The notes under the pieces are model-generated. The model saw only the letters and a program-made list of their open reading frames with translations, was not told the origin of the DNA and did not search any database. A stretch of DNA of 64,000 nt, from assembly GCA_964542305.1 (NCBI GenBank), contig CAZITX010000006.1:4172-68171 (forward strand), in the 5' to 3' direction. A program made the translations under genes and the position numbers. Shown one piece after another: positions 1,346-12,068 of this stretch (position 1 is its first letter; every line of letters begins with the position of its first letter). This stretch comes from an uncultured Muribaculaceae bacterium (GTDB lineage: Bacteria; Bacteroidota; Bacteroidia; Bacteroidales; UBA932).

Positions 1346-2665
1346 TTATGCCCCCAGTCCAATTCCTATGTATTCAAAGCCTTTCTCTTTGATTTCCTGT
1401 GGGTTGTAAATATTGCGCCCGTCAACGACCAGCGGCGTATGCATGATCTTGCGCAGCACGTCCCACGCAGGCATGCGGAATTCTTTCCACTCGGTCACCA
1501 GCACCAGCGCGTGCGCATCGTTAGCCGCTTCGTACATGTCGTTTGCAAAATGAATTGATTTGCCGAGTAGGCCGCGCGCCTGGTCCATGGCCACGGGATC
1601 GTAAGCCTGTACGCGGCATCCGGCTTCCAGCAGACTTTCAATGAGCACCCGGGAAGGCGCTTCCCGCATATCGTCGGTCTGTGGCTTGAAGGAAAGCCCC
1701 CAAACCGCAACGGTTTTACCTTTGAGCGCACCGCCGAAGTGTTTGTGCAACTTGTCAAACAGCACCTTCTTTTGAGCTTCGTTCACCCGGTCCACCGATT
1801 CTATGAGTTCCATAGGATACCCGTGCTCGCGGCCCATGCCAATGAGCGCCTTCACATCTTTTGGGAAGCAACTGCCTCCGTAGCCCGGCCCGGCGTACAG
1901 GAATTTATGCCCGATGCGGGTGTCCGAGCCGATCCCTACGCGCACGCTGTTCACATCGGCACCCATTTTTTCACAAAGGTTGGCCATCTGGTTCATGAAC
2001 GAGATGCGGGTGGCCAGCATGGCGTTGGCTGCGTATTTGGTCATCTCGGCAGAAGGAACATCCATAAAGAGCACCCGGAAATTCTTCAGCAGGAAAGGCC
2101 GGTAGAGGTTTTCCATGATCTTGCGGGCCTTTTCGGTTTCCACACCTACGACCACCCGGTCCGGGCTCATGAAATCGCGGATGGCGTCGCCTTCCTTCAG
2201 AAATTCGGGATTGGAAGCTATGTCAAAAGGGATATCGGCTTTTCGCTTGCCGAGTTCTTCGTTGATCACCTGTTTTACTTTGGCGGCGGTGCCTACCGGA
2301 ACCGTACTTTTGGTGGTGAATACCAGGTAGTTGGTCATGTGTTTTCCCACAGTCCGGGCCACATCCAAAACGTAATGAATGTCCGCGCTCCCGTCTTCAT
2401 TAGGCGGCGTACCGACGGCACTGAACACAATTTCCGTGTTTTCCAGGCAATCCTTCAGTTCTGTGGTAAAATGCAAACGCCCTGCAATTACGTTCCGGCT
2501 GACCATGGGCTCCAGTCCGGGTTCATAAATGGGCAAAATTCCTTTTTTCAGGTTCTCGATCTTCTGTTTGTCAATGTCCACACACGTCACGTGTGCGCCC
2601 ATCTCGGCAAAACAGACTCCGGACACAAGTCCTACGTACCCGGTTCCTACAATGGCAATATTCAT
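1346..2665 (-). CDS. ugd: UDP-glucose 6-dehydrogenase
   Basis: 439 aa. N-terminal Rossmann motif IVGTGYVGLVSG, catalytic Cys motif GYGGSCFPKDV, and full-length family resemblance. Confidence 0.93.
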   Translation of the reverse strand: MNIAIVGTGYVGLVSGVCFAEMGAHVTCVDIDKQKIENLKKGILPIYEPGLEPMVSRNVIAGRLHFTTELKDCLENTEIVFSAVGTPPNEDGSADIHYVLDVARTVGKHMTNYLVFTTKSTVPVGTAAKVKQVINEELGKRKADIPFDIASNPEFLKEGDAIRDFMSPDRVVVGVETEKARKIMENLYRPFLLKNFRVLFMDVPSAEMTKYAANAMLATRISFMNQMANLCEKMGADVNSVRVGIGSDTRIGHKFLYAGPGYGGSCFPKDVKALIGMGREHGYPMELIESVDRVNEAQKKVLFDKLHKHFGGALKGKTVAVWGLSFKPQTDDMREAPSRVLIESLLEAGCRVQAYDPVAMDQARGLLGKSIHFANDMYEAANDAHALVLVTEWKEFRMPAWDVLRKIMHTPLVVDGRNIYNPQEIKEKGFEYIGIGLGA

Positions 2666-2690
2666 ACGGTTTTGGTTTGGGGAGCAGGGG

Positions 2691-2798
2691 GAATCTCTGA
2701 GATTCTGCGCAACTGCTCTTTGTTGAAATTCTTATATATCATATAATCAGCGTTTTGTGGTACTAACGGCCGAGTTCTTGCGCAGAATCTCTGAGATT
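2691..2798. repeat. REPIN/MITE-like inverted REP doublet (~108 nt) at the rfbB/ugd junction
   Basis: Arm 2691-2712 is GAATCTCTGAGATTCTGCGCAA. A 65-nt spacer follows. Arm 2778-2798 is the inverted copy, TTGCGCAGAATCTCTGAGATT. Each arm contains the palindrome GAATCTC-N-GAGATTC. Confidence 0.85.
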
Positions 2799-3805
2799 AC
2801 CGTCCGCTCCAGTCCCTCCCGGAAGGTCATCTGCTGCTGCCAGCCGAGTTCGGTTTTGATCTTGGTGGCGTCTATGGCATAACGCAAGTCGTGTCCCGGG
2901 CGGTCGGTGACAAAGGTGATGAGCGGGAGGGAGTCGCCTGCCGGACGGCCCAGCTGACGGTCGGTGATTTCTATGAGCAGGCGCACCAGTTCAATATTCT
3001 GCCACTCGTTCTCCCCGCCTATATTATAGGTTTCACCCACACGGCCCTTATGAAACACCAGGTCAATGGCCCGGGCATGGTCTTCCACATACAGCCAGTC
3101 ACGAACGTTTTCGCCTTTGCCGTATACGGGTAGTGGTTTGCGGTTTACTATATTGTTGATGATCACGGGGATCAGTTTTTCCGGGTACTGGCAGGGTCCG
3201 TAATTGTTGGAGCAATTGGATATCTTCACGGGCAGCCCGTAGGTATGGTAAAAAGCCCTTACAAAATGATCTGCCGAGGCTTTGGAGGCCGAGTAGGGGG
3301 AGCGGGGGTCATAGGGGGTGGTTTCCCGGAAGGGTTCGTCCCCAAAGTGAAGTGCACCGTAAACTTCATCTGTGGATATCTGGTAAAAAAGGTGTTTGTG
3401 GTAGTCTTCCTTTTTCCAGTACGTTTTGGCCGTTTGCAACAGGGTAAGCGTTCCCATCACATTGGAGCGGGCAAAGGCAAACGGATCCGTAATGCTGCGG
3501 TCCACATGGCTTTCGGCCGCCAGGTGTATCACGGCATCTATTTGGTATTTACGGAAGATCTCCTCCATTTTCGCATGATCGCACACATCGGCCTGTATGA
3601 ACACATAATTGGGTTCATTTTCAATATCTTTCAGGTACTCCGGGTTGGCTGCATACGTTAATTTATCCACATTGATGATGCGGTACTGCGGATACTTCTT
3701 CACAAAATGCCTGACCACGTGCGATCCAATGAAGCCACACCCGCCGGAGATGAAAATCTCAGAGATTCTGCGCAAGTCCATGAGGTTGTTTTTTGCACTT
3801 TCCAT
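2747..3805 (-). CDS. rfbB: dTDP-glucose 4,6-dehydratase
   Basis: 352 aa. Rossmann motif SGGCGFIGSHV and SDR catalytic motif PYSASKASADHF. An alternative start at the second ATG (3781, MDLRRISEIF...) fits the usual short N-terminus better. Both termini are encoded by the repeat elements. Confidence 0.9.
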   Translation of the reverse strand: MESAKNNLMDLRRISEIFISGGCGFIGSHVVRHFVKKYPQYRIINVDKLTYAANPEYLKDIENEPNYVFIQADVCDHAKMEEIFRKYQIDAVIHLAAESHVDRSITDPFAFARSNVMGTLTLLQTAKTYWKKEDYHKHLFYQISTDEVYGALHFGDEPFRETTPYDPRSPYSASKASADHFVRAFYHTYGLPVKISNCSNNYGPCQYPEKLIPVIINNIVNRKPLPVYGKGENVRDWLYVEDHARAIDLVFHKGRVGETYNIGGENEWQNIELVRLLIEITDRQLGRPAGDSLPLITFVTDRPGHDLRYAIDATKIKTELGWQQQMTFREGLERTVISEILRKNSAVSTTKR

Positions 3806-3862
3806 AAAATCAGCAGGTTAAGATTTGGTGGTGTTGTGTGTTGCGCAGAATCTCTGAGATTC
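3754..3862. repeat. REPIN/MITE-like inverted REP doublet (~109 nt) at the rfbA/rfbB junction
   Basis: Arm 3754-3775 is AAATCTCAGAGATTCTGCGCAA. A 65-nt spacer follows. Arm 3841-3862 is TTGCGCAGAATCTCTGAGATTC. The spacer shares a CATA(A/T)AATCAGC block with the 2691-2798 copy. Confidence 0.85.
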
Positions 3863-4744
3863 CCGGGCGGCTGCTGCGTTTGCAAGCTCCAGGATGTACT
3901 GCCCGTATTCATTGCTTTTCATGGGCTGGGCATCTTCGCGGAGCTGTTGGGCAGTGCGCCAGCCGTTGCGCAGGGCGATTTCTTCCAGGCAGGCGATTTT
4001 CAAACCCTGCCGGGCCTGGATGGTTTCCACAAAGTTGGACGCCTCGGCAAGGGAACTATGCGTGCCGGTGTCCAGCCAGGCAAAGCCTCGGCCCAGAGTG
4101 GTTACGTGCAGACGCTGTTGCTGGAGGAAATGGTCGTTGACCGAGGTGATTTCCAACTCGCCCCGGGCAGAGGGTTTCACACGCGCGGCCACTTCCAGCA
4201 CGTTGTTGGGGTAGAAATAGAGGCCCGTGACGGCCAGGTTTGATTTGGGTTGCTGCGGTTTTTCCTGTATTGAGAGGGGATTCCCGTTTTTGCCTATTTC
4301 TACGACGCCGTAGCGTTCCGGGTCTTTTATGGGGTAACCGAAGATGTGTGCAAAGCCTTTGTTTGCCGAGTCCAAGGCCTGGTGGAGCATGGTCCGGAAA
4401 CCTTGCCCGTAGAAAATGTTGTCGCCCAGAACCAGGCTGACGCAGTCGCTGCCCACAAAGTCCCTGCCAATGATGAACGCCTGTGCCAGCCCTTCCGGCC
4501 GGGGTTGGGGGGCATATTGGAATCGGACACCAAAGGATTCACCTGAGCCCAGCAGCCTTTCAAAGGAGGGCAGGTCCTGAGGGGTGGATATGATGAGGAT
4601 GTCCTGTATTCCGGCCAGCATCAGGACAGATAACGGGTAATAGATCATGGGTTTATCGTAGATGGGGAGCAATTGCTTGGAGACTCCTTTTGTTATGGGG
4701 TACAGGCGTGTGCCCGAGCCTCCTGCCAGAATAATTCCTTTCAT
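3818..4744 (-). CDS. rfbA: Glucose-1-phosphate thymidylyltransferase
   Basis: 308 aa. The N-terminus [18 protein letters not shown] carries the G-G-x-G-T-R signature, and the RmlA resemblance is full-length. The last ~17 residues are read through the REP arm. Confidence 0.93.
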
Positions 4745-4791: not shown

Positions 4792-6498
4792 ATGAAATGT
4801 TTGTGGATACTGGCAACCATCCTTTTTATGCAGGGTCACGGGCTGCCCCCAGCCGCAGCTGCAATGCCCGAAATGCCAGCGGTCGCAGCTGCAATGCCCG
4901 GACTGGCCGCTTCCGCAGCTCCAATCCCCGAACTGCCCACGTCCGCTTCTGCAGCTGCACTGCCCGGGCTGACCGTGGTTGACGGGACAGGCAAAACGGC
5001 GGCTTCATCCGCAGGAACAGATATTGACAGTTTGCAGGTGATTGCTGACAGCTTGCTCAATGGCAAAACTGTTGCGGTGATGACAGGATCCCTGGGCGAG
5101 ATGATGCTGACCGATGAATGCCCGCAAGTGGTAGTACGCTGTTTTGACGATATCATGGACGGCTTTGCCGCGCTGCGGGCCGGAAAGGTAAATTACGTGA
5201 TGACCGCCTACACAACAGCCTATGTGGTGAACCGTTCCGAACGGTCGTACCGGATATTACCGCATCATTTGACCAATGAAGGGGCCGGGGTGGCCATATC
5301 CAAAAGCAATGATACCGGGTTGTTGCGGGGAATCGATTCGGTTCTGGCTGTTTTTAGAAAGGACGGTACTCTGGACGCGATCATAGGGAACTGGATCCGA
5401 CACGACGGCTCGGATTATGTGATTCCTGAATTCGGGAATAATGACAGGCAACAGGACAGATCTACAAGTGTTCATGAGGGCAGGCCTGCTAACTCTCAGC
5501 AAGACAGACCGGTGTTGCGGGTGGGTACTGCAGCCAACAGGGAGCCCATGTGTTTCATTCAAAACAACAAGATTGCCGGACTGGACTGGGAGTTGATGAT
5601 GCGTACCGGTGAGGCGCTGGGTATGGAAGTGGAATTTGTGGATATGAAATATGCCGCCCTGATAGCAGCCTTGCAATCGGGAAAGATAGATGCCATCGCA
5701 TCAAATATGACAGCAACAGCCGAGCGGAAAAAGCAGGTGGATTTTTCCGAGGTGTATTTTGTGAATCCACAGGTGCTGATCGTTTGGGATCCCGGTGAGC
5801 TTTCTGAAAATGAAGGGAATGCCACTCTTGGTCATTGGGATCAGTTAAAAGACGGATTGCAACGGAATCTGATCCACGAAAAACGTTACCGATTGATATT
5901 GGACGGATTGTGGATTACATTCGTCATTGCCATTCTCTCTGTGATCCTGGGGACACTGGTGGGGGCAGGTATCTGTGCTTTGCGCATGTCTTCGCACCCG
6001 ATAAGTAGAAATTTTGCAAAGGGATACATTTCTTTATTCCGGGCGATCCCGCACGTGGTTATTCTGATGTTGATGTTTTACGTGGTGTTTGCTACGTTGC
6101 GGATCAGCGGAATTTTTGTTTCTGTCATTACGTTTGCCATGATCTTTGCGGCATATTCTTCAGAGTTATTCCGAACATCCCTGGAGAGTATTCCCACAGG
6201 TCAGCGTCATGCTGGACTGGCCCTGGGTCTTAATAAATTCCAGACATTTTGGTACATTTTACTGCCCCAGGCCGTACGGATTGCGTTTCCGGTCTACAAG
6301 GGCGAGGTGATTTCACTTATTAAAATGACGGCAATTGTGGGATATATTGCGGTTCAGGATCTTACAAAGGCCGGAGATATAATTCGCAGCCGCACTTTTG
6401 ATGCATTCTTTCCACTGGTGATGGTCGCCCTGATCTATATGGTGATCATTTGGGTCATCACCCGGCTTTTGAACCTGATCTCTTTCAAGCAGAGTTAA
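4792..6498 (+). CDS. Fused amino-acid ABC transporter protein: two SBP_bac_3-like substrate-binding modules plus a His/Glu/Gln/Arg-type permease domain
   Basis: 568 aa. Signal-like N-terminus, Ala/Pro repeat linker, SBP-like segments (GKTVAVMTGS...DGTLDAIIGNW; LRVGTAANREPMCF...SGKIDAIASNMTATAERKKQVDFSEVY), then a multi-TM permease (LDGLWITFVIAILSVILGTLVGA...). Confidence 0.75.
   Translation: MKCLWILATILFMQGHGLPPAAAAMPEMPAVAAAMPGLAASAAPIPELPTSASAAALPGLTVVDGTGKTAASSAGTDIDSLQVIADSLLNGKTVAVMTGSLGEMMLTDECPQVVVRCFDDIMDGFAALRAGKVNYVMTAYTTAYVVNRSERSYRILPHHLTNEGAGVAISKSNDTGLLRGIDSVLAVFRKDGTLDAIIGNWIRHDGSDYVIPEFGNNDRQQDRSTSVHEGRPANSQQDRPVLRVGTAANREPMCFIQNNKIAGLDWELMMRTGEALGMEVEFVDMKYAALIAALQSGKIDAIASNMTATAERKKQVDFSEVYFVNPQVLIVWDPGELSENEGNATLGHWDQLKDGLQRNLIHEKRYRLILDGLWITFVIAILSVILGTLVGAGICALRMSSHPISRNFAKGYISLFRAIPHVVILMLMFYVVFATLRISGIFVSVITFAMIFAAYSSELFRTSLESIPTGQRHAGLALGLNKFQTFWYILLPQAVRIAFPVYKGEVISLIKMTAIVGYIAVQDLTKAGDIIRSRTFDAFFPLVMVALIYMVIIWVITRLLNLISFKQS
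4855..4977 (+). repeat. Imperfect 30-36 nt tandem repeat x4 encoding an Ala/Pro-rich linker
   Basis: Units GCAGCTGCAATGCCCGAAATGCCAGCGGTC (4855-4884), 4885-4914, 4915-4950 and 4951-4977. They encode AAAMPEMPAV / AAAMPGLAAS / AAPIPELPTSAS / AAALPGLTV. Confidence 0.8.
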
Positions 6499-7694: not shown

Positions 7695-7767
7695 AGCCTT
7701 CCACGGGACTCGAACCCGCGACCTGCTCATTACGAATGAGCTGCTCTACCGACTGAGCTAAGAAGGC
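7695..7767 (-). tRNA. tRNA-Thr (anticodon CGT)
   Basis: The reverse complement folds as a 73-nt cloverleaf. Acceptor GCCTTCT/GGAAGGC; D arm GCTC-AGTCGGTA-GAGC; anticodon arm GCTCA-TTCGTAA-TGAGC; variable loop AGGTC; T arm GCGGG-TTCGAGT-CCCGT. CCA is not encoded. Confidence 0.9.
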
Positions 7768-7800: not shown

Positions 7801-7902
7801 CTGCGCCGCAAATGGAGTTTGCTGCGCCAGAGACCCGCAGTGAGTGCGCCACAAATGGAGATTGATGCGCCACAGACCCCACCTGCTGCGCCAAAATTTT
7901 GG
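7801..7902. repeat. ~42-nt tandem array (2.3 copies), each unit carrying a REP-like AAATGGAG(T/A)TTG(C/A)TGCGCCA core
   Basis: Units at 7803-7845, 7846-7887 and 7888-7902 (partial). REP cores lie at 7810-7829 and 7853-7873. Confidence 0.85.
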
Positions 7903-7933: not shown

Positions 7934-9328
7934 ATGGATGTAATAGTAATAGGAGCAGGAGCTGCAGGCATGATGGCAGCGGGTACGGCGGCCGAGCGGG
8001 GAGCACGGGTTGTGTTGCTGGAGAAGATGGAGAAGCCGGGGCGTAAACTGGCCATTACCGGCAAAGGCCGTTGCAATATTACGAATCTTAAGGATTGGGA
8101 AGCGTTCAGCCCCCACGTCCATCCGCTAAAAAGGTATTTCAAGCCTGCATTTTATCAATTTACAAGTGAGGATACGGTGAATTTTTTCAATGACATTGGG
8201 TTGCCTACGGTTGTGGAACGCGGTACCCGGGTGTACCCGGCTTCACAACAGGCTTTTGATGTGATCGATGTTATGAAATCGTGGCTGGAACGTCTTGGCG
8301 TTCAGATAGTATACAATTCTCGGGTACTGGAATTCATTACGGAAGACAAAAGGGGCACAGATGATGATCGGGCTGCACAATCGGCAATGACCTCTGCGGG
8401 CGAAATTTCAGCAGAAGGCACCAGGGAGGTAGCAGGTCAACAGAAAGTTGACTCGGCAAAGACTAAGAAGGAGGACCTGCTGAAAATCAGGGCGGTGAAG
8501 GTGGAAGGCGCAGACGGTAAGTTCAGGTCTCTGGAAGCGGACCATTTCATCCTGGCCACGGGCGGACAGTCCTATCCCAGAACGGGTTCGACCGGAGACG
8601 GGTACCCTTTGGCCTCGGCTTTAGGACATACCATTGAGCCACTATTTCCGACGTTAACTGCCTTGATGCCTGTGAATTACGACCGAAGCCTGGAGGGGAT
8701 TCAACTGCGCAACGTGCGCCTGGAGCTTTACACCGAGCAGGTGCTCCGGCGTTCGGAAGACGGCGAACTGTATTTCACCAACCTCGGGATCGAAGGTCCT
8801 ATTGGCTTTCGCGTGAGCCGGCAAGCGGTCGTGGCCCTGAACAAGGGTCAACGCGTTGCCTTGCACCTGAATCTGAAACCCGCACTTACGCGGGAGCAAT
8901 TGATGGCTCGGTGGGAGCGGGAATCAATGGCCCGGTGGGAGCGGGAATCAATGGCCCGGTGGGAGCGGGAATCAATGGCCGTCGCGCTTTCCCTGCGATT
9001 GAAACGTTATTTGCCCGAGGCGTTGATTGCTCCCTTTATAAAATACCTTGCCGAGTCGGGGCTGCACCCTGTAGATGGTATGCTTCGATGGGTCTTTCCC
9101 ATAGCCTCTTACGGAGACTGGGCCCGGGCAGTCGTCACTGCAGGCGGAATTTCTATGAAAGAGATCGACCTACACACCATGCGTTCAAAACGCGTTGCAA
9201 ATTTATCGATTGCAGGTGAAGTCATGGATTTGGACGCAGACAGCGGCGGCTACAACCTCCAGATAGCCTTTGCTACCGGCAGGGTGGCGGGAAATGGCGC
9301 GGTAGGTGGAACCTTCCGCGCCAAATAA
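7934..9328 (+). CDS. HI0933/BaiN-type NAD(P)/FAD-dependent oxidoreductase (aminoacetone-oxidase family flavoprotein)
   Basis: 464 aa. FAD-binding motif VIVIGAGAAGMMAAGTAAERG, family motif ITGKGRCNITN, and C-terminal GGYNLQIAFATGRVAG. It carries two insertions and a REP-encoded tail (GGTFRAK). Confidence 0.85.
   Translation: MDVIVIGAGAAGMMAAGTAAERGARVVLLEKMEKPGRKLAITGKGRCNITNLKDWEAFSPHVHPLKRYFKPAFYQFTSEDTVNFFNDIGLPTVVERGTRVYPASQQAFDVIDVMKSWLERLGVQIVYNSRVLEFITEDKRGTDDDRAAQSAMTSAGEISAEGTREVAGQQKVDSAKTKKEDLLKIRAVKVEGADGKFRSLEADHFILATGGQSYPRTGSTGDGYPLASALGHTIEPLFPTLTALMPVNYDRSLEGIQLRNVRLELYTEQVLRRSEDGELYFTNLGIEGPIGFRVSRQAVVALNKGQRVALHLNLKPALTREQLMARWERESMARWERESMARWERESMAVALSLRLKRYLPEALIAPFIKYLAESGLHPVDGMLRWVFPIASYGDWARAVVTAGGISMKEIDLHTMRSKRVANLSIAGEVMDLDADSGGYNLQIAFATGRVAGNGAVGGTFRAK
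8903..8980 (+). repeat. 24-bp perfect or near-perfect tandem repeat, 3.25 copies, in frame (MARWERES x3)
   Basis: ATGGC(T/C)CGGTGGGAGCGGGAATCA at 8903-8926, 8927-8950 and 8951-8974, plus a partial copy at 8975-8980. Confidence 0.95.
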
Positions 9329-9405
9329 TTGAAGCTGTTTCTTATATGTCTAATAGTTAGATATATGGAAAATACGTTACTTTTTTGGCGCGCTAAGGTT
9401 CCACC
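9305..9405. repeat. Inverted REP doublet A (REPIN-like)
   Basis: 9305-9325 is GGTGGAACCTTCCGCGCCAAA. 9384-9405 is TTTGGCGCGCTAAGGTTCCACC, an inverted copy with a small indel. The spacer is 58 nt and AT-rich. The doublet overlaps the ends of both convergent genes. Confidence 0.9.
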
Positions 9406-10237
9406 TCCTAAGACTAGTTTCGGCAATATTCAACACTCTGCTTAATTGTTTAATTGATACCGGTAACTTTTGTCTGACACTTCTAGCCAGTCGGATTTTT
9501 TCGGTGACTGAAAGCTGTGGAATGGTTTTTGGTGAAATTTGTTTTAAAATCAACTGGCTTATATAGATATCCGGATACCTTACCTTCATTGAATATTGTA
9601 GAGATTCCAGCTCAGACTTCTCTTTATCAGTAGGATTGGATAATTTGATCATGGCCTTATCATAGGGTCCAAGATATTTTTCTACTTCTTTTATTTTCAA
9701 AAAGCTACCAGGATAAATGTGTCCTTTATTGTTTACACAGTAATGATCAGGTATTTGCTCTGACGAATAGGGTAGATTTGTATTCTTTTCAACTAGTTGA
9801 TAATCTTTGCCATAGTCGATTCCACGGTCTTTTTGATAATAATACCTGGCTGAACAAAAAGGATCGCTATAGGGATGTTTCACTGTTCCATGTCTGGTTG
9901 AATTGCGTAAAACATAAATCAGTTTCTCTATCAACTCTTCTTCATTTCTTGCCAAAACCGACACATATCCCCTGCTGCCTACACTTCCTTCAGTTTTGTA
10001 TTTATGATTGTAATAATTGGCATAGCTAACTCGTAATGCTTTAATAAAAAAGGAAGGATCTGTGCATCTTACAAATAGATGTAAATGGTTTGATAGAAAA
10101 TCATACGCAAGAACCTCCACATCGTATTTGTAGGCAAATACAGCCAGCAAATCAATCATATGATATATATCTTCTTTCTCCAGGAATAAGCTTTGATGCG
10201 CATTTCCTCTGATACATATGTGGCGGTAAATCTTCAT
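9377..10237 (-). CDS. REP-associated tyrosine transposase-like protein (HUH / Y1_Tnp, IS200-like fold) with a C-terminal HTH-like extension
   Basis: 286 aa. HUH motif FLSNHLHLFV (H51-L-H53) and Tyr motif LIYVLRNSTRHG (Y108). The C-terminal segment SVTEKIRLARSVRQKLPVSIKQLSRVLNIAETSLRRW looks like an HTH. REPs flank the gene on both sides. Confidence 0.8.
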   Translation of the reverse strand: MKIYRHICIRGNAHQSLFLEKEDIYHMIDLLAVFAYKYDVEVLAYDFLSNHLHLFVRCTDPSFFIKALRVSYANYYNHKYKTEGSVGSRGYVSVLARNEEELIEKLIYVLRNSTRHGTVKHPYSDPFCSARYYYQKDRGIDYGKDYQLVEKNTNLPYSSEQIPDHYCVNNKGHIYPGSFLKIKEVEKYLGPYDKAMIKLSNPTDKEKSELESLQYSMKVRYPDIYISQLILKQISPKTIPQLSVTEKIRLARSVRQKLPVSIKQLSRVLNIAETSLRRWNLSAPKK

Positions 10238-10290
10238 ATGATCAAAGAAAAGTACAATTTGTAGAATAAAAGGGACAAAAAAGATAAAGA

Positions 10291-10393
10291 GGTGGAACCT
10301 TCCGCGCCAAAAATCATCTAGATATTTTATAAATATCAGATTAACAAGGTGTTTATAAAATAGGGACTAATAAATGGCGCGGAAGGTTCCACC
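10291..10393. repeat. Inverted REP doublet B (REPIN-like)
   Basis: 10291-10313 is GGTGGAACCTTCCGCGCCAAAAA. 10375-10393 is the inverted copy TGGCGCGGAAGGTTCCACC. The spacer is 61 nt and AT-rich. Confidence 0.9.
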
Positions 10394-10980
10394 TAGATTA
10401 TCTTAAAATCCACTTCCGGCAGTACTCTTATCCTGGATCCGGGAGCAGCGGGTAAAGGCGTATGAAGCTCCAGAATTAGTAAATCTCCCATTTTCAAATA
10501 TACAAAACCTGATAAATGGGCTATTCTCTTTGCAACAAATTGGCTAGAGGGGATGGGAAATGTCAGCACTTGACGGTCATCCGCTTGGAGTGGATTATCG
10601 TCTTTTTGCATAGAAATTTGTTCAATTTGATCTTTGCCGAGGAAAGTCCTTGGCATGGACAAGGAGTAGTCGAGTGCGAGGCCGGGAATCCACAGGGATC
10701 CATTGTGCTTTATGTCTGCATTTGGATCCGAGTTAGTTTCTGATAAAACTTTCGGATGTCCGTAGATACAAACACCATAATTTACTTCTGAATAATACCT
10801 ATGAGCAAACTGTTCCTTTATACTTCTGCCTAAGCGGTTGAATTTGAGAATATAACATGAAGTGTAAGTAATACTTCCACAAACCGGGGGAATAAAAAAA
10901 TCATCTGTAGGTTTAGCCAGAGCCGTATCCGGTTTCATGTAAAAATCATCAGCCCCAAAAGGATAGGCAAAGAGTTTCAT
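10393..10980 (-). CDS. Short FAH-family-like protein, apparently degenerate (hypothetical)
   Basis: 195 aa. The segments FYMKPDTALAKP...FIPP, KEQFAHRYYSEV and LKMGDLLILE...G resemble the ~200-aa FAH-type proteins of Bacteroidota. The acidic metal-site positions look substituted. This rests on memory-based comparison only. Confidence 0.45.
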   Translation of the reverse strand: MKLFAYPFGADDFYMKPDTALAKPTDDFFIPPVCGSITYTSCYILKFNRLGRSIKEQFAHRYYSEVNYGVCIYGHPKVLSETNSDPNADIKHNGSLWIPGLALDYSLSMPRTFLGKDQIEQISMQKDDNPLQADDRQVLTFPIPSSQFVAKRIAHLSGFVYLKMGDLLILELHTPLPAAPGSRIRVLPEVDFKII

Positions 10981-11882: not shown

Positions 11883-11983
11883 AAATGGAGTTTGACTGCG
11901 CCAACAAAATCATCTGTTTTGTAATTTTCATAAATACAGATGTTTATGTTTACGAAAATAATGTGGCGCAGCAGTCTCCATTT
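11883..11983. repeat. Inverted REP doublet C (REPIN-like) in the dnaN/exonuclease spacer
   Basis: 11883-11905 is AAATGGAGTTTGACTGCGCCAAC. 11963-11983 is the inverted copy GTGGCGCAGCAGTCTCCATTT. The 57-nt AT-rich spacer begins AAAATCATCT, like the spacer of doublet B. Confidence 0.88.
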
Positions 11984-12068
11984 GACGGCCTAAAAACGCC
12001 ACAAGCACCGCAAATGCCTGGGTAGCCTGGGCATGAATATGCTGTCGCAGTTGTTACTTGCAGCCTTG

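Follow-up and report, generated by a model that had tools for sequence, protein, structure and literature searches.

Inverted-repeat elements at two operon junctions

We analyzed a 64,000-nucleotide (nt) stretch of DNA from an uncultured Muribaculaceae bacterium (contig CAZITX010000006.1, positions 4,172 to 68,171; hereafter the window), in which two inverted-repeat elements, E1 and E2, occupy the rfbB/ugd and rfbA/rfbB junctions of a polysaccharide operon. The genes concerned all lie on the minus strand: rfbA (3818-4744; 308 amino acids (aa); glucose-1-phosphate thymidylyltransferase family, Pfam NTP_transferase), rfbB (2747-3805; 352 aa; dTDP-glucose 4,6-dehydratase family, Pfam GDP_Man_Dehyd/Epimerase) and ugd (1346-2665; 439 aa; UDP-glucose 6-dehydrogenase family, with UDPG_MGDP_dh domains in its orthologs). 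Orthologs of the operon were found at loci L003 (WOFB08) and L010 (SO_2017_LW3_103, below LW3_103), with ~86-87% nucleotide identity.

The 21-nt arm TTGCGCAGAATCTCNGAGATT occurs four times in the window, where no occurrence is expected, and forms two inverted pairs with 65-nt spacers. Searching the window for TTGCGCAGAATCTCTGAGATT with up to three mismatches returned 2692-2712 (-), 2778-2798 (+), 3755-3775 (-) and 3841-3861 (+) and no other match, and 100 dinucleotide shuffles of the window gave none. E1 (2689-2801) consists of the arms 2689-2712 and 2778-2801, with cores at 2692-2712 and 2778-2798, around the spacer 2713-2777. E2 (3752-3864) likewise has arms at 3752-3775 and 3841-3864, cores at 3755-3775 and 3841-3861, and the spacer 3776-3840. 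The extended arms measure 24 nt, and the E1 arm pair is 92% complementary. By a hand count on the alignment the two spacers are ~43% alike, and they have the central block CATAWAATCAGC in common. The two inverted-repeat elements with 65-nt spacers and a shared central block that an initial annotation of this DNA had described are thus real.

That annotation had also given every arm a 7+1+7 palindrome, GAATCTCNGAGATTC, and had proposed that an arm could fold alone or pair with its partner. The palindrome is exact in two of the four arms and carries one mismatch in the other two. Pairing of the two arms was predicted for the whole element on either strand, as a stem of 22-24 bp (RNA, -39 to -47 kcal/mol; z, -5 to -7.8), but a lone type-A arm, as we call the arm of E1 and E2, folds only weakly (DNA, -3.2 kcal/mol; z, -1.9). 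E1 and E2 thus combine inverted arms, a variable spacer and a long hairpin, the features that define a REPIN, a doublet of repetitive extragenic palindromic (REP) sequences. An Rfam scan of the whole window at the gathering threshold returned one tRNA only, and E1 and E2 matched no known RNA family. Scans for sigma-70 promoters and terminators gave no signal above chance at the elements. A Bacteroidetes promoter (TTTG ... TAnnTTTG) in the spacers was rejected, as inspection by eye found only mis-spaced candidates with one mismatch.

The elements had been placed exactly on the cistron junctions. They do lie at rfbA/rfbB and rfbB/ugd, but they overlap the ends of the coding sequences. The final ~20 codons of rfbA run through one E2 arm into the spacer, which holds the stop codon TAA (3818-3820). 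rfbB starts at an ATG in the same spacer (3803-3805) and continues through the other E2 arm, so that its first 17 codons (MESAKNNLMD-LRRISEI) are spacer and arm, followed by FISGG. Its last 16 codons, ISEILRKNSAVSTTKR, comprise an E1 arm (ISEILRK) and E1 spacer, and its stop codon TGA (2747-2749) lies in that spacer. Four nucleotides past this stop, an ATG (2740-2742) opens a bridge open reading frame (ORF) of 26 codons (2662-2742, minus strand), which extends from the E1 spacer through the second E1 arm and whose TGA overlaps the ugd ATG (ATGA). The spacers therefore provide the stop codons of rfbA and rfbB, the start codon of rfbB and a bridge ORF into ugd. More distant Bacteroidales rfbB homologs begin with MKNILITGG and are without the terminal extensions.

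The third junction, ugd/wzx, had been said to carry a different repeat, and this was borne out: the gap at 1280-1340 is filled by a 21-nt tandem repeat, with three copies of CCNGGCNGTTTTGTGGCAGTT. The length of this gap varies in relatives, and the WOFB08 and LW3_103 sequences align only on either side of the repeat.

Dispersal of the type-A arm

A pattern scan of one genome per species found the exact type-A arm in metagenome-assembled genomes (MAGs) of five Bacteroidales/Rikenellaceae species, together with three chance-like lone matches in unrelated phyla. When mismatches were allowed, nearly all Bacteroidales matches were doublets with a start-to-start spacing of 86 nt. MAG WOFB08 holds at least eight type-A doublets, a count that, like the others given here, was drawn from incomplete MAGs and 8-kb loci. 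The same MAGs also contain two further arm types, B and D. Type-A copies sit at co-directional, convergent and divergent gene junctions, and many arms overlap ORF ends. Since convergent and divergent gene pairs also harbor copies, the family is confined neither to operon junctions nor to genes for polysaccharides. The initial annotation had named an absence of copies elsewhere as a finding that would speak against mobile REP doublets; copies were present at unrelated loci. Its description of the elements as REPIN-like was upheld by the same arms and spacing in related genomes and by the doublets that flank genes for a candidate REP-associated tyrosine transposase (RAYT), described below.

We also considered an integron attC-like junction and discarded it. 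The AAC/GTT-like bases are at the inner, not the outer, ends of the arms, GCGCAAC misfits RYYYAAC, and copies of the elements are also located between genes that converge or diverge.

A RAYT-like gene and its matching arm types

A gene for a RAYT-like Y1/HUH transposase (9377-10237, minus strand; 286 aa) lies ~6 kb from E1 and E2. Its product carries SNHLH and IYVLRN motifs and a helix-turn-helix (HTH)-like C-terminal part. It scored 27.2 bits against Pfam Y1_Tnp (cut-off 23), and its best NCBIfam model was REP_Tyr_transpos, 'REP-associated tyrosine transposase' (E = 1e-7). The closest PDB sequences were IS200-type transposases (E = 0.009), and close homologs are named 'REP element-mobilizing transposase RayT' by JGI. 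Across 19 homologs the SNHxH (HUH) motif, the IYVxRN (tyrosine) motif and the HTH-like C-terminal segment were invariant.

A window-wide search for inverted repeats with ~65-nt spacing revealed a doublet of another arm type, C, at 10290-10394 (AGGTGGAACCTTCCGCGCCA, a 65-nt spacer and TGGCGCGGAAGGTTCCACCT), 53 nt upstream of the RAYT start. A second type-C doublet (9304-9406) covers the 3' end of the gene. Its left arm (9304-9323) encodes the last codons (GGTFRAK*) of an HI0933-like ORF, and its right arm (9386-9406), which has one indel, encodes the RAYT tail RRWNLSAPKK. The RAYT-like gene of the window thus has type-C doublets on both flanks, built in the same way as type A. The HI0933-like flavoprotein ORF itself (7934-9328) contains a coding tandem repeat in which MARWERES occurs three times.

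Type-A doublets flank a RAYT-like gene elsewhere. In WOFB08, a paralog with 43% identity (L016, 2752-3615) has them on both sides, arranged as in the window, and so does an 89% relative of this paralog (L031, L032; two further assemblies). RAYT homologs with arms of type B (CATCTTCAAGCTG-CCGCGCCAC) or type F have them on both flanks, and for types E and G arms were seen on one flank. The homologs associated with types B, E, F and G occupy an ackA/pta-TPR-gyrA locus or have shifted a short way within its gene neighborhood. The C-terminal tail is always encoded by the protein's own arm: WNLSAPKK for type C, KWSLSAPKY for type D, ISEILRKKV for type A and IFKLPRH for type B. The order dnaN - RNase T - 181-aa gene - RAYT - HI0933 is kept in the RAYT lineage of the window, and ackA/pta - RAYT - TPR - gyrA in three homologs of the type-A lineage, two others being displaced within the neighborhood. 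Judged by this gene order, both RAYT lineages are vertically inherited in the same extragenic space.

Further REP-type sequences occur around the gene. A type-D doublet lies in the gap between the RNase T-like gene and dnaN (11883-11985), with an exact left arm, AAATGGAGTTTGACTGCGCCA, and a decayed right arm; the RAYT ortholog of WOFB08 is flanked by arms of this type (L003, 6704-6806). Two direct, degenerate type-D-like single arms (7802-7879, plus strand; TGCGCC.CAAATGGAG.TTG.TGCGCCA) are located in a divergent intergenic region, preceded by a tRNA gene (7695-7767, minus strand). All REP-type elements detected in the window (types A, C and D) cluster around the RAYT gene in the first 12 kb, and none was detected in the remaining 52 kb (12001-64000). 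An unrelated kind of repeat, four copies of a 30-nt tandem unit at 4844-4969, lies in the N-terminal part of ORF 4792-6498 and encodes a Pro/Ala/Gln-rich linker.

The arrangement of arms and enzyme bears on the view that the elements are invertons, in which a site-specific recombinase would invert either the 65-nt spacer or the 956 nt of rfbB core between the inner arms and so switch translation or transcription of rfbB and ugd. Invertible DNA switches occur in Bacteroides capsule loci, and E1 and E2 bring perfect inverted repeats to a polysaccharide operon of the Bacteroidales. Their arms lie in four alternating orientations, the inner arm pair (2777-2798/3755-3776) is 100% complementary and, read from the sequence, a spacer flip would remove in-frame stop and start codons. 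The RAYT cassette, which lies between two doublets, is inverted in WOFB08 (L003, 6923-7807) relative to the window (9377-10237), with colinear flanking genes. Recombination between the inverted doublets on either side would fit this arrangement, and arm recombination is therefore possible on evolutionary time scales. Against switching, every orthologous set examined showed one spacer orientation relative to the flanking genes (five type-A sets, two window/L010 junctions and eight assemblies of one type-C' locus). Some doublets separate convergent genes, a position from which a switch could not control anything. The enzyme linked to the arms belongs to the Y1/HUH transposases and not to the serine or tyrosine recombinases, and 65 bp between sites is short for recombinase synapsis. 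We regard inversion as very improbable.

Architecture common to all arm types

Across all arm types, the arms measure ~21-24 nt and consist of a short palindrome and an inner YGCGCMA tail. The GCGC-to-GCGC distance is exactly 77 nt in 31 of the 46 non-redundant doublets. Oriented spacers yield a shared consensus, whose core AATCAGnnnnTTA fits the enterobacterial consensus for integration host factor (IHF), WATCARNNNNTTR. An exact match to WATCARNNNNTTR is present in 11 of the 46 doublets (0.6 expected) and one with at most a single mismatch in 34 (10 expected), always at the same offset from the doublet center. The DNA-bending proteins of Bacteroidales may differ in specificity. The motifs of E1 and E2 both fit WATCARNNNNTTR on the plus strand. 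The E1 motif, AATCAGCGTTTTG (2745-2757), overlaps the rfbB stop codon at 2747-2749 and adjoins the bridge ATG at 2740-2742. The TTA of the E2 motif, AATCAGCAGGTTA (3808-3820), reads on the minus strand as TAA, the stop codon of rfbA, and the rfbB ATG lies at 3803-3805.

The strand of the motif relative to transcription varies between loci, and a feature acting at the DNA level is therefore more likely. For the same reason, the variation among junctions, we ruled out the central ATG block as a family-wide translation signal. More likely, the ATG or TAA of the motif is used opportunistically.

This architecture can be set against that of a conventional family of miniature inverted-repeat transposable elements (MITEs), moved in trans by a DDE transposase that would recognize the 21-nt terminal inverted repeats. 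The size of 108 nt, the perfect terminal inverted repeats and the dispersed copies would all suit such a family. MITE copies normally share interior sequence, however, whereas the interiors of non-orthologous doublets are 43-49% identical and share just a fixed length and one central motif. In addition, no target-site duplication is evident at pta/ackA, a junction described below, and the only gene consistently flanked by matching arms encodes the Y1/HUH (RAYT-like) protein. A DDE-driven MITE family is, in our estimation, highly improbable.

Some arms depart from the simple plan in that GC-rich tails stand at either side of the palindrome, as in GTGGCGCG-TCATCTTCAAGCTGC-CGCGCCAC, giving a unit of 31-34 nt. 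Such double-tailed units were seen at L010 (1007-1117), at L033 (6400-6530) and at the rfbA/rfbB junctions of L037 and L040, and are predicted to fold well alone (-9 to -10 kcal/mol as DNA). In L040 the unit is inserted in frame at the rfbB N-terminus. Long GC-rich tandem repeats adjoin doublets at L031 (8354-8570) and L035 (20570-20640), with GGCAGCACCCC-like and GCGCACCCAGCC-like units.

Conservation and history of the sites

Orthologous type-A elements were compared between species in 13 pairs. Arms were 95-100% identical throughout, and in 12 of the pairs spacers were 68-89% and flanks 61-92% identical, the 13th being more diverged. With arms at this level and spacers and flanks drifting, the arms are therefore maintained, by selection or by homogenization.

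At the rfbA/rfbB junction, L003 carries an orthologous copy of E2 whose arms are type A. In L010 the architecture is unchanged and the spacer is homologous, but the arms are type B; L037 has an intermediate arm, TGGCGCAGCATCTCGGAGATT, the arms of L038 and L039 are decayed, and L040 has lost its first arm. The start peptide encoded by the spacer is MEDNKN-like in all relatives, and the residues encoded by the arm follow the arm type. At the rfbB/ugd junction, L010 again has type-B arms, here around a spacer homologous to that of E1 and with the bridge ORF open. L003 retains a collapsed remnant, in which an A-type palindrome is followed directly by a B-type arm, and its rfbB reads on to an ATGA overlap with ugd. 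This site is full, collapsed or decayed depending on the relative, and a distant relative has a type-F doublet there, whose spacer could not be shown to be homologous to that of E1. These comparisons indicate that the rfbA/rfbB element is old, being shared across the clade, and that the rfbB/ugd site is in flux. They also reveal a change of arm type at a fixed site, with persistence of the spacer.

The initial annotation had proposed that mobile doublets colonized the junctions, which the comparisons support only in part. One clean filled-versus-empty case agrees with this: the pta/ackA junction holds a type-B doublet in L031 and L033 and is empty in L034 and L035. The rfbA/rfbB element itself, however, is old and clade-wide. 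In L034 and L035 the 'empty' pta-ackA gap contains a terminator-like hairpin, GGGGCTG-CACAA-CAGCCCC, followed by T8.

The same comparisons speak to the idea that E1 and E2 are locally evolved regulatory structures, with palindromic arms that serve as operators for a dimeric transcription factor or as an RNA structure specific to the operon and a central block that is a site for a nucleoid protein. Arms conserved far above the flanking DNA, a fixed-position central motif that resembles an IHF site and an rfbA/rfbB element common to a clade could all be read in this way. A local origin is at odds with the occurrence of the same arm and spacing at many unrelated loci and in every gene orientation, with arm types that follow RAYT paralogs and orthologs, and with one junction that is filled in some species and empty in others. 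We consider it very unlikely. Regulatory exaptation of a resident REPIN is a different matter and is compatible with the REPIN-like origin to which we now turn.

Interpretation

Taken together, the sequence comparisons lead us to assign a probability of about 0.8 to the following reading: E1 and E2 are type-A copies of a Bacteroidales REPIN-like family with a cognate RAYT-like enzyme, and the operon genes have adapted around them. A RAYT-like Y1/HUH transposase, cognate to the arms and passed on vertically, would use them as its recognition sites; it may recognize them as single-stranded hairpins and maintain, and occasionally copy, the repeats. The elements would have settled at rfbA/rfbB and rfbB/ugd, junctions that are very tight and were probably once ATGA-type stop/start overlaps. 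Adaptation of the genes would then have left upstream ORFs that read through the first arm and stop in the spacer, an rfbB that starts at the spacer ATG, and a 26-codon bridge ORF that restores a stop/start overlap with ugd.

The predicted folds would permit a regulatory role. In the polycistronic mRNA, the arms could form a stem of 22-24 bp with the stop and start codons inside it. Ribosomes completing the upstream cistron would then open this stem and permit downstream initiation, so that translation would be coupled across the junction. The initial annotation had suggested that the elements may act in mRNA processing, stability or attenuation; the scan for terminators gave no signal above chance.

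Several points weigh against the assignment to a REPIN-RAYT family. The first concerns the enzyme. A tblastn search of the 64-kb window found only the type-C-flanked gene and no type-A RAYT, and the cognate enzyme of the source genome is therefore deduced from relatives. Scores against the NF047646 equivalog were 32 (the window protein), 21 and 16 bits, below the cut-off of 80, and this was still the best-scoring model, ahead of IS200. Mobility of the family and activity of its RAYT are what we infer from sequence patterns. The second concerns the repeats. About 10 type-A copies were seen per MAG, whereas the REPINs of Pseudomonas and E. coli typically number dozens to hundreds of copies. The GTAG/CGTC tags of described REP superfamilies were absent from the arms when the sequences were read. 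Lone arms of types C and D fold more weakly than those of type A, and type F gave no fold; a 'REP palindrome' is therefore not a family-wide property. The third concerns movement. No target-site duplication or clean excision footprint was definable at pta/ackA, where the sequences are too diverged, and the change of arm type in situ, as the aligned junctions present it, is not explained by simple transposition.

This last point raises the possibility that arms are rewritten in place, as the type-B arms of L010 around homologous spacers at both junctions and the intermediate or hybrid arms of other relatives at these sites might indicate. We think this unlikely as it stands, yet of all the findings the switching of arm types in situ most merits pursuit. 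Were arms overwritten or homogenized in a RAYT-dependent manner, REPIN populations would evolve by concerted conversion and not by transposition alone, and the substrate of the rewriting might be a hairpin with the fixed 77-nt geometry, bent and bound by IHF/HU. On this reading the elements would in addition be load-bearing parts of Bacteroidales operons, through the stop and start codons that they donate and the coupling of translation. If both arm switching and translational coupling were real, the family would offer a good system for the study of repeat maintenance and host co-option.

The family also has practical consequences for genome annotation. It explains the odd N- and C-terminal extensions of annotated rfbA, rfbB and RAYT proteins in these MAGs, and we flag its members as repeats able to confuse assembly and gene calling.

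Comparison with known systems

An inverted repeat in a Bacteroidales polysaccharide operon has a precedent in the 77-bp inverted repeat of the Porphyromonas gingivalis K-antigen capsule locus, which was experimentally shown to influence surface-glycan expression (PMC8757827). There, the arms measure 77 bp each and lie around a long segment that codes for an antisense RNA of 550 nt, and the recurrence of the number 77 is coincidental. This difference in architecture ruled it out as the same system. Rickettsia palindromic elements and intragenic REPs, compared here by description only, resemble our elements in that in-frame palindromic repeats are tolerated in coding sequence and add short peptides; in the present family, however, they stand at the ends of ORFs and contribute stop and start codons. 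Cases of REPs that reach into the ends of ORFs and provide their stop codons have also been described (Di Nocera et al. 2013, PMC3733652).

The E. coli bacterial interspersed mosaic element BIME-1/RIP (RIB; REP, IHF site, inverted REP) shares with our doublets an inverted REP pair, a positioned central WATCARNNNNTTR motif and dispersed intergenic copies. Its arm sequences are unrelated, and the IHF/HU site proposed here is putative.

In the Bacteroidetes literature that we found, the only counterpart is a mention of 'atypical secondary structures' beside TnpAREP-like genes: the Bacteroidetes TnpAREP subclass 2.6 was described as 'flanked by atypical secondary structures' (Quentin et al. 2018, PMC6006769). 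Members of this subclass or of the 'TIRYT/TIRtron' group (PMC6006769, PMC3733652) share the NHxH HUH motif with our protein. Compared by motif and length, our protein differs in having IYVxRNS where subclass 2.6 has YIH[QN]NP and in being ~100 aa longer. No report of the doublet architecture of E1 and E2 was found in PMC6006769 or PMC3733652.

The closest likeness is to the REPIN-RAYT systems of Pseudomonas and Enterobacteria (Bertels & Rainey 2011). A REPIN consists of two inverted REPs around a variable spacer, and its RAYT is flanked by its own REP type and keeps the same extragenic space (bioRxiv 10.1101/2021.07.10.451892). Bertels and co-workers used these flanking and synteny criteria to tie a RAYT to its REPIN population (bioRxiv 10.1101/2021.07.10.451892), and drew the REPIN link only for RAYT Groups 2 and 3. 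As in those systems, we found inverted REP arms around a variable spacer that together form a long hairpin, several arm types per genome, each with its own RAYT, RAYT genes flanked by their own type at a conserved extragenic position, and arms that are conserved as spacers drift. Unlike those systems, the family is hosted by Bacteroidales, with a protein of ~286 aa whose C-terminal half is HTH-like and whose NCBIfam score falls below the cut-off. Its inner tail is YGCGCMA and not GTAG, single arms fold weakly, and the copies seen number ~10 per type. Spacer length is strictly fixed, with a conserved central motif, and arms routinely lie in ORFs, including the 3' end of the RAYT gene itself.

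REPIN-RAYT systems have so far been characterized almost entirely in Proteobacteria, and this locus offers a clear Bacteroidales example, with several arm types, each matched to a RAYT lineage. What sets it apart is the longer and divergent RAYT-like protein, the YGCGCMA tail, the strict 77-nt geometry, the positioned central motif and the routine use of arms as coding sequence. It adds a new family to a known class of elements and does not represent a novel type of regulator.

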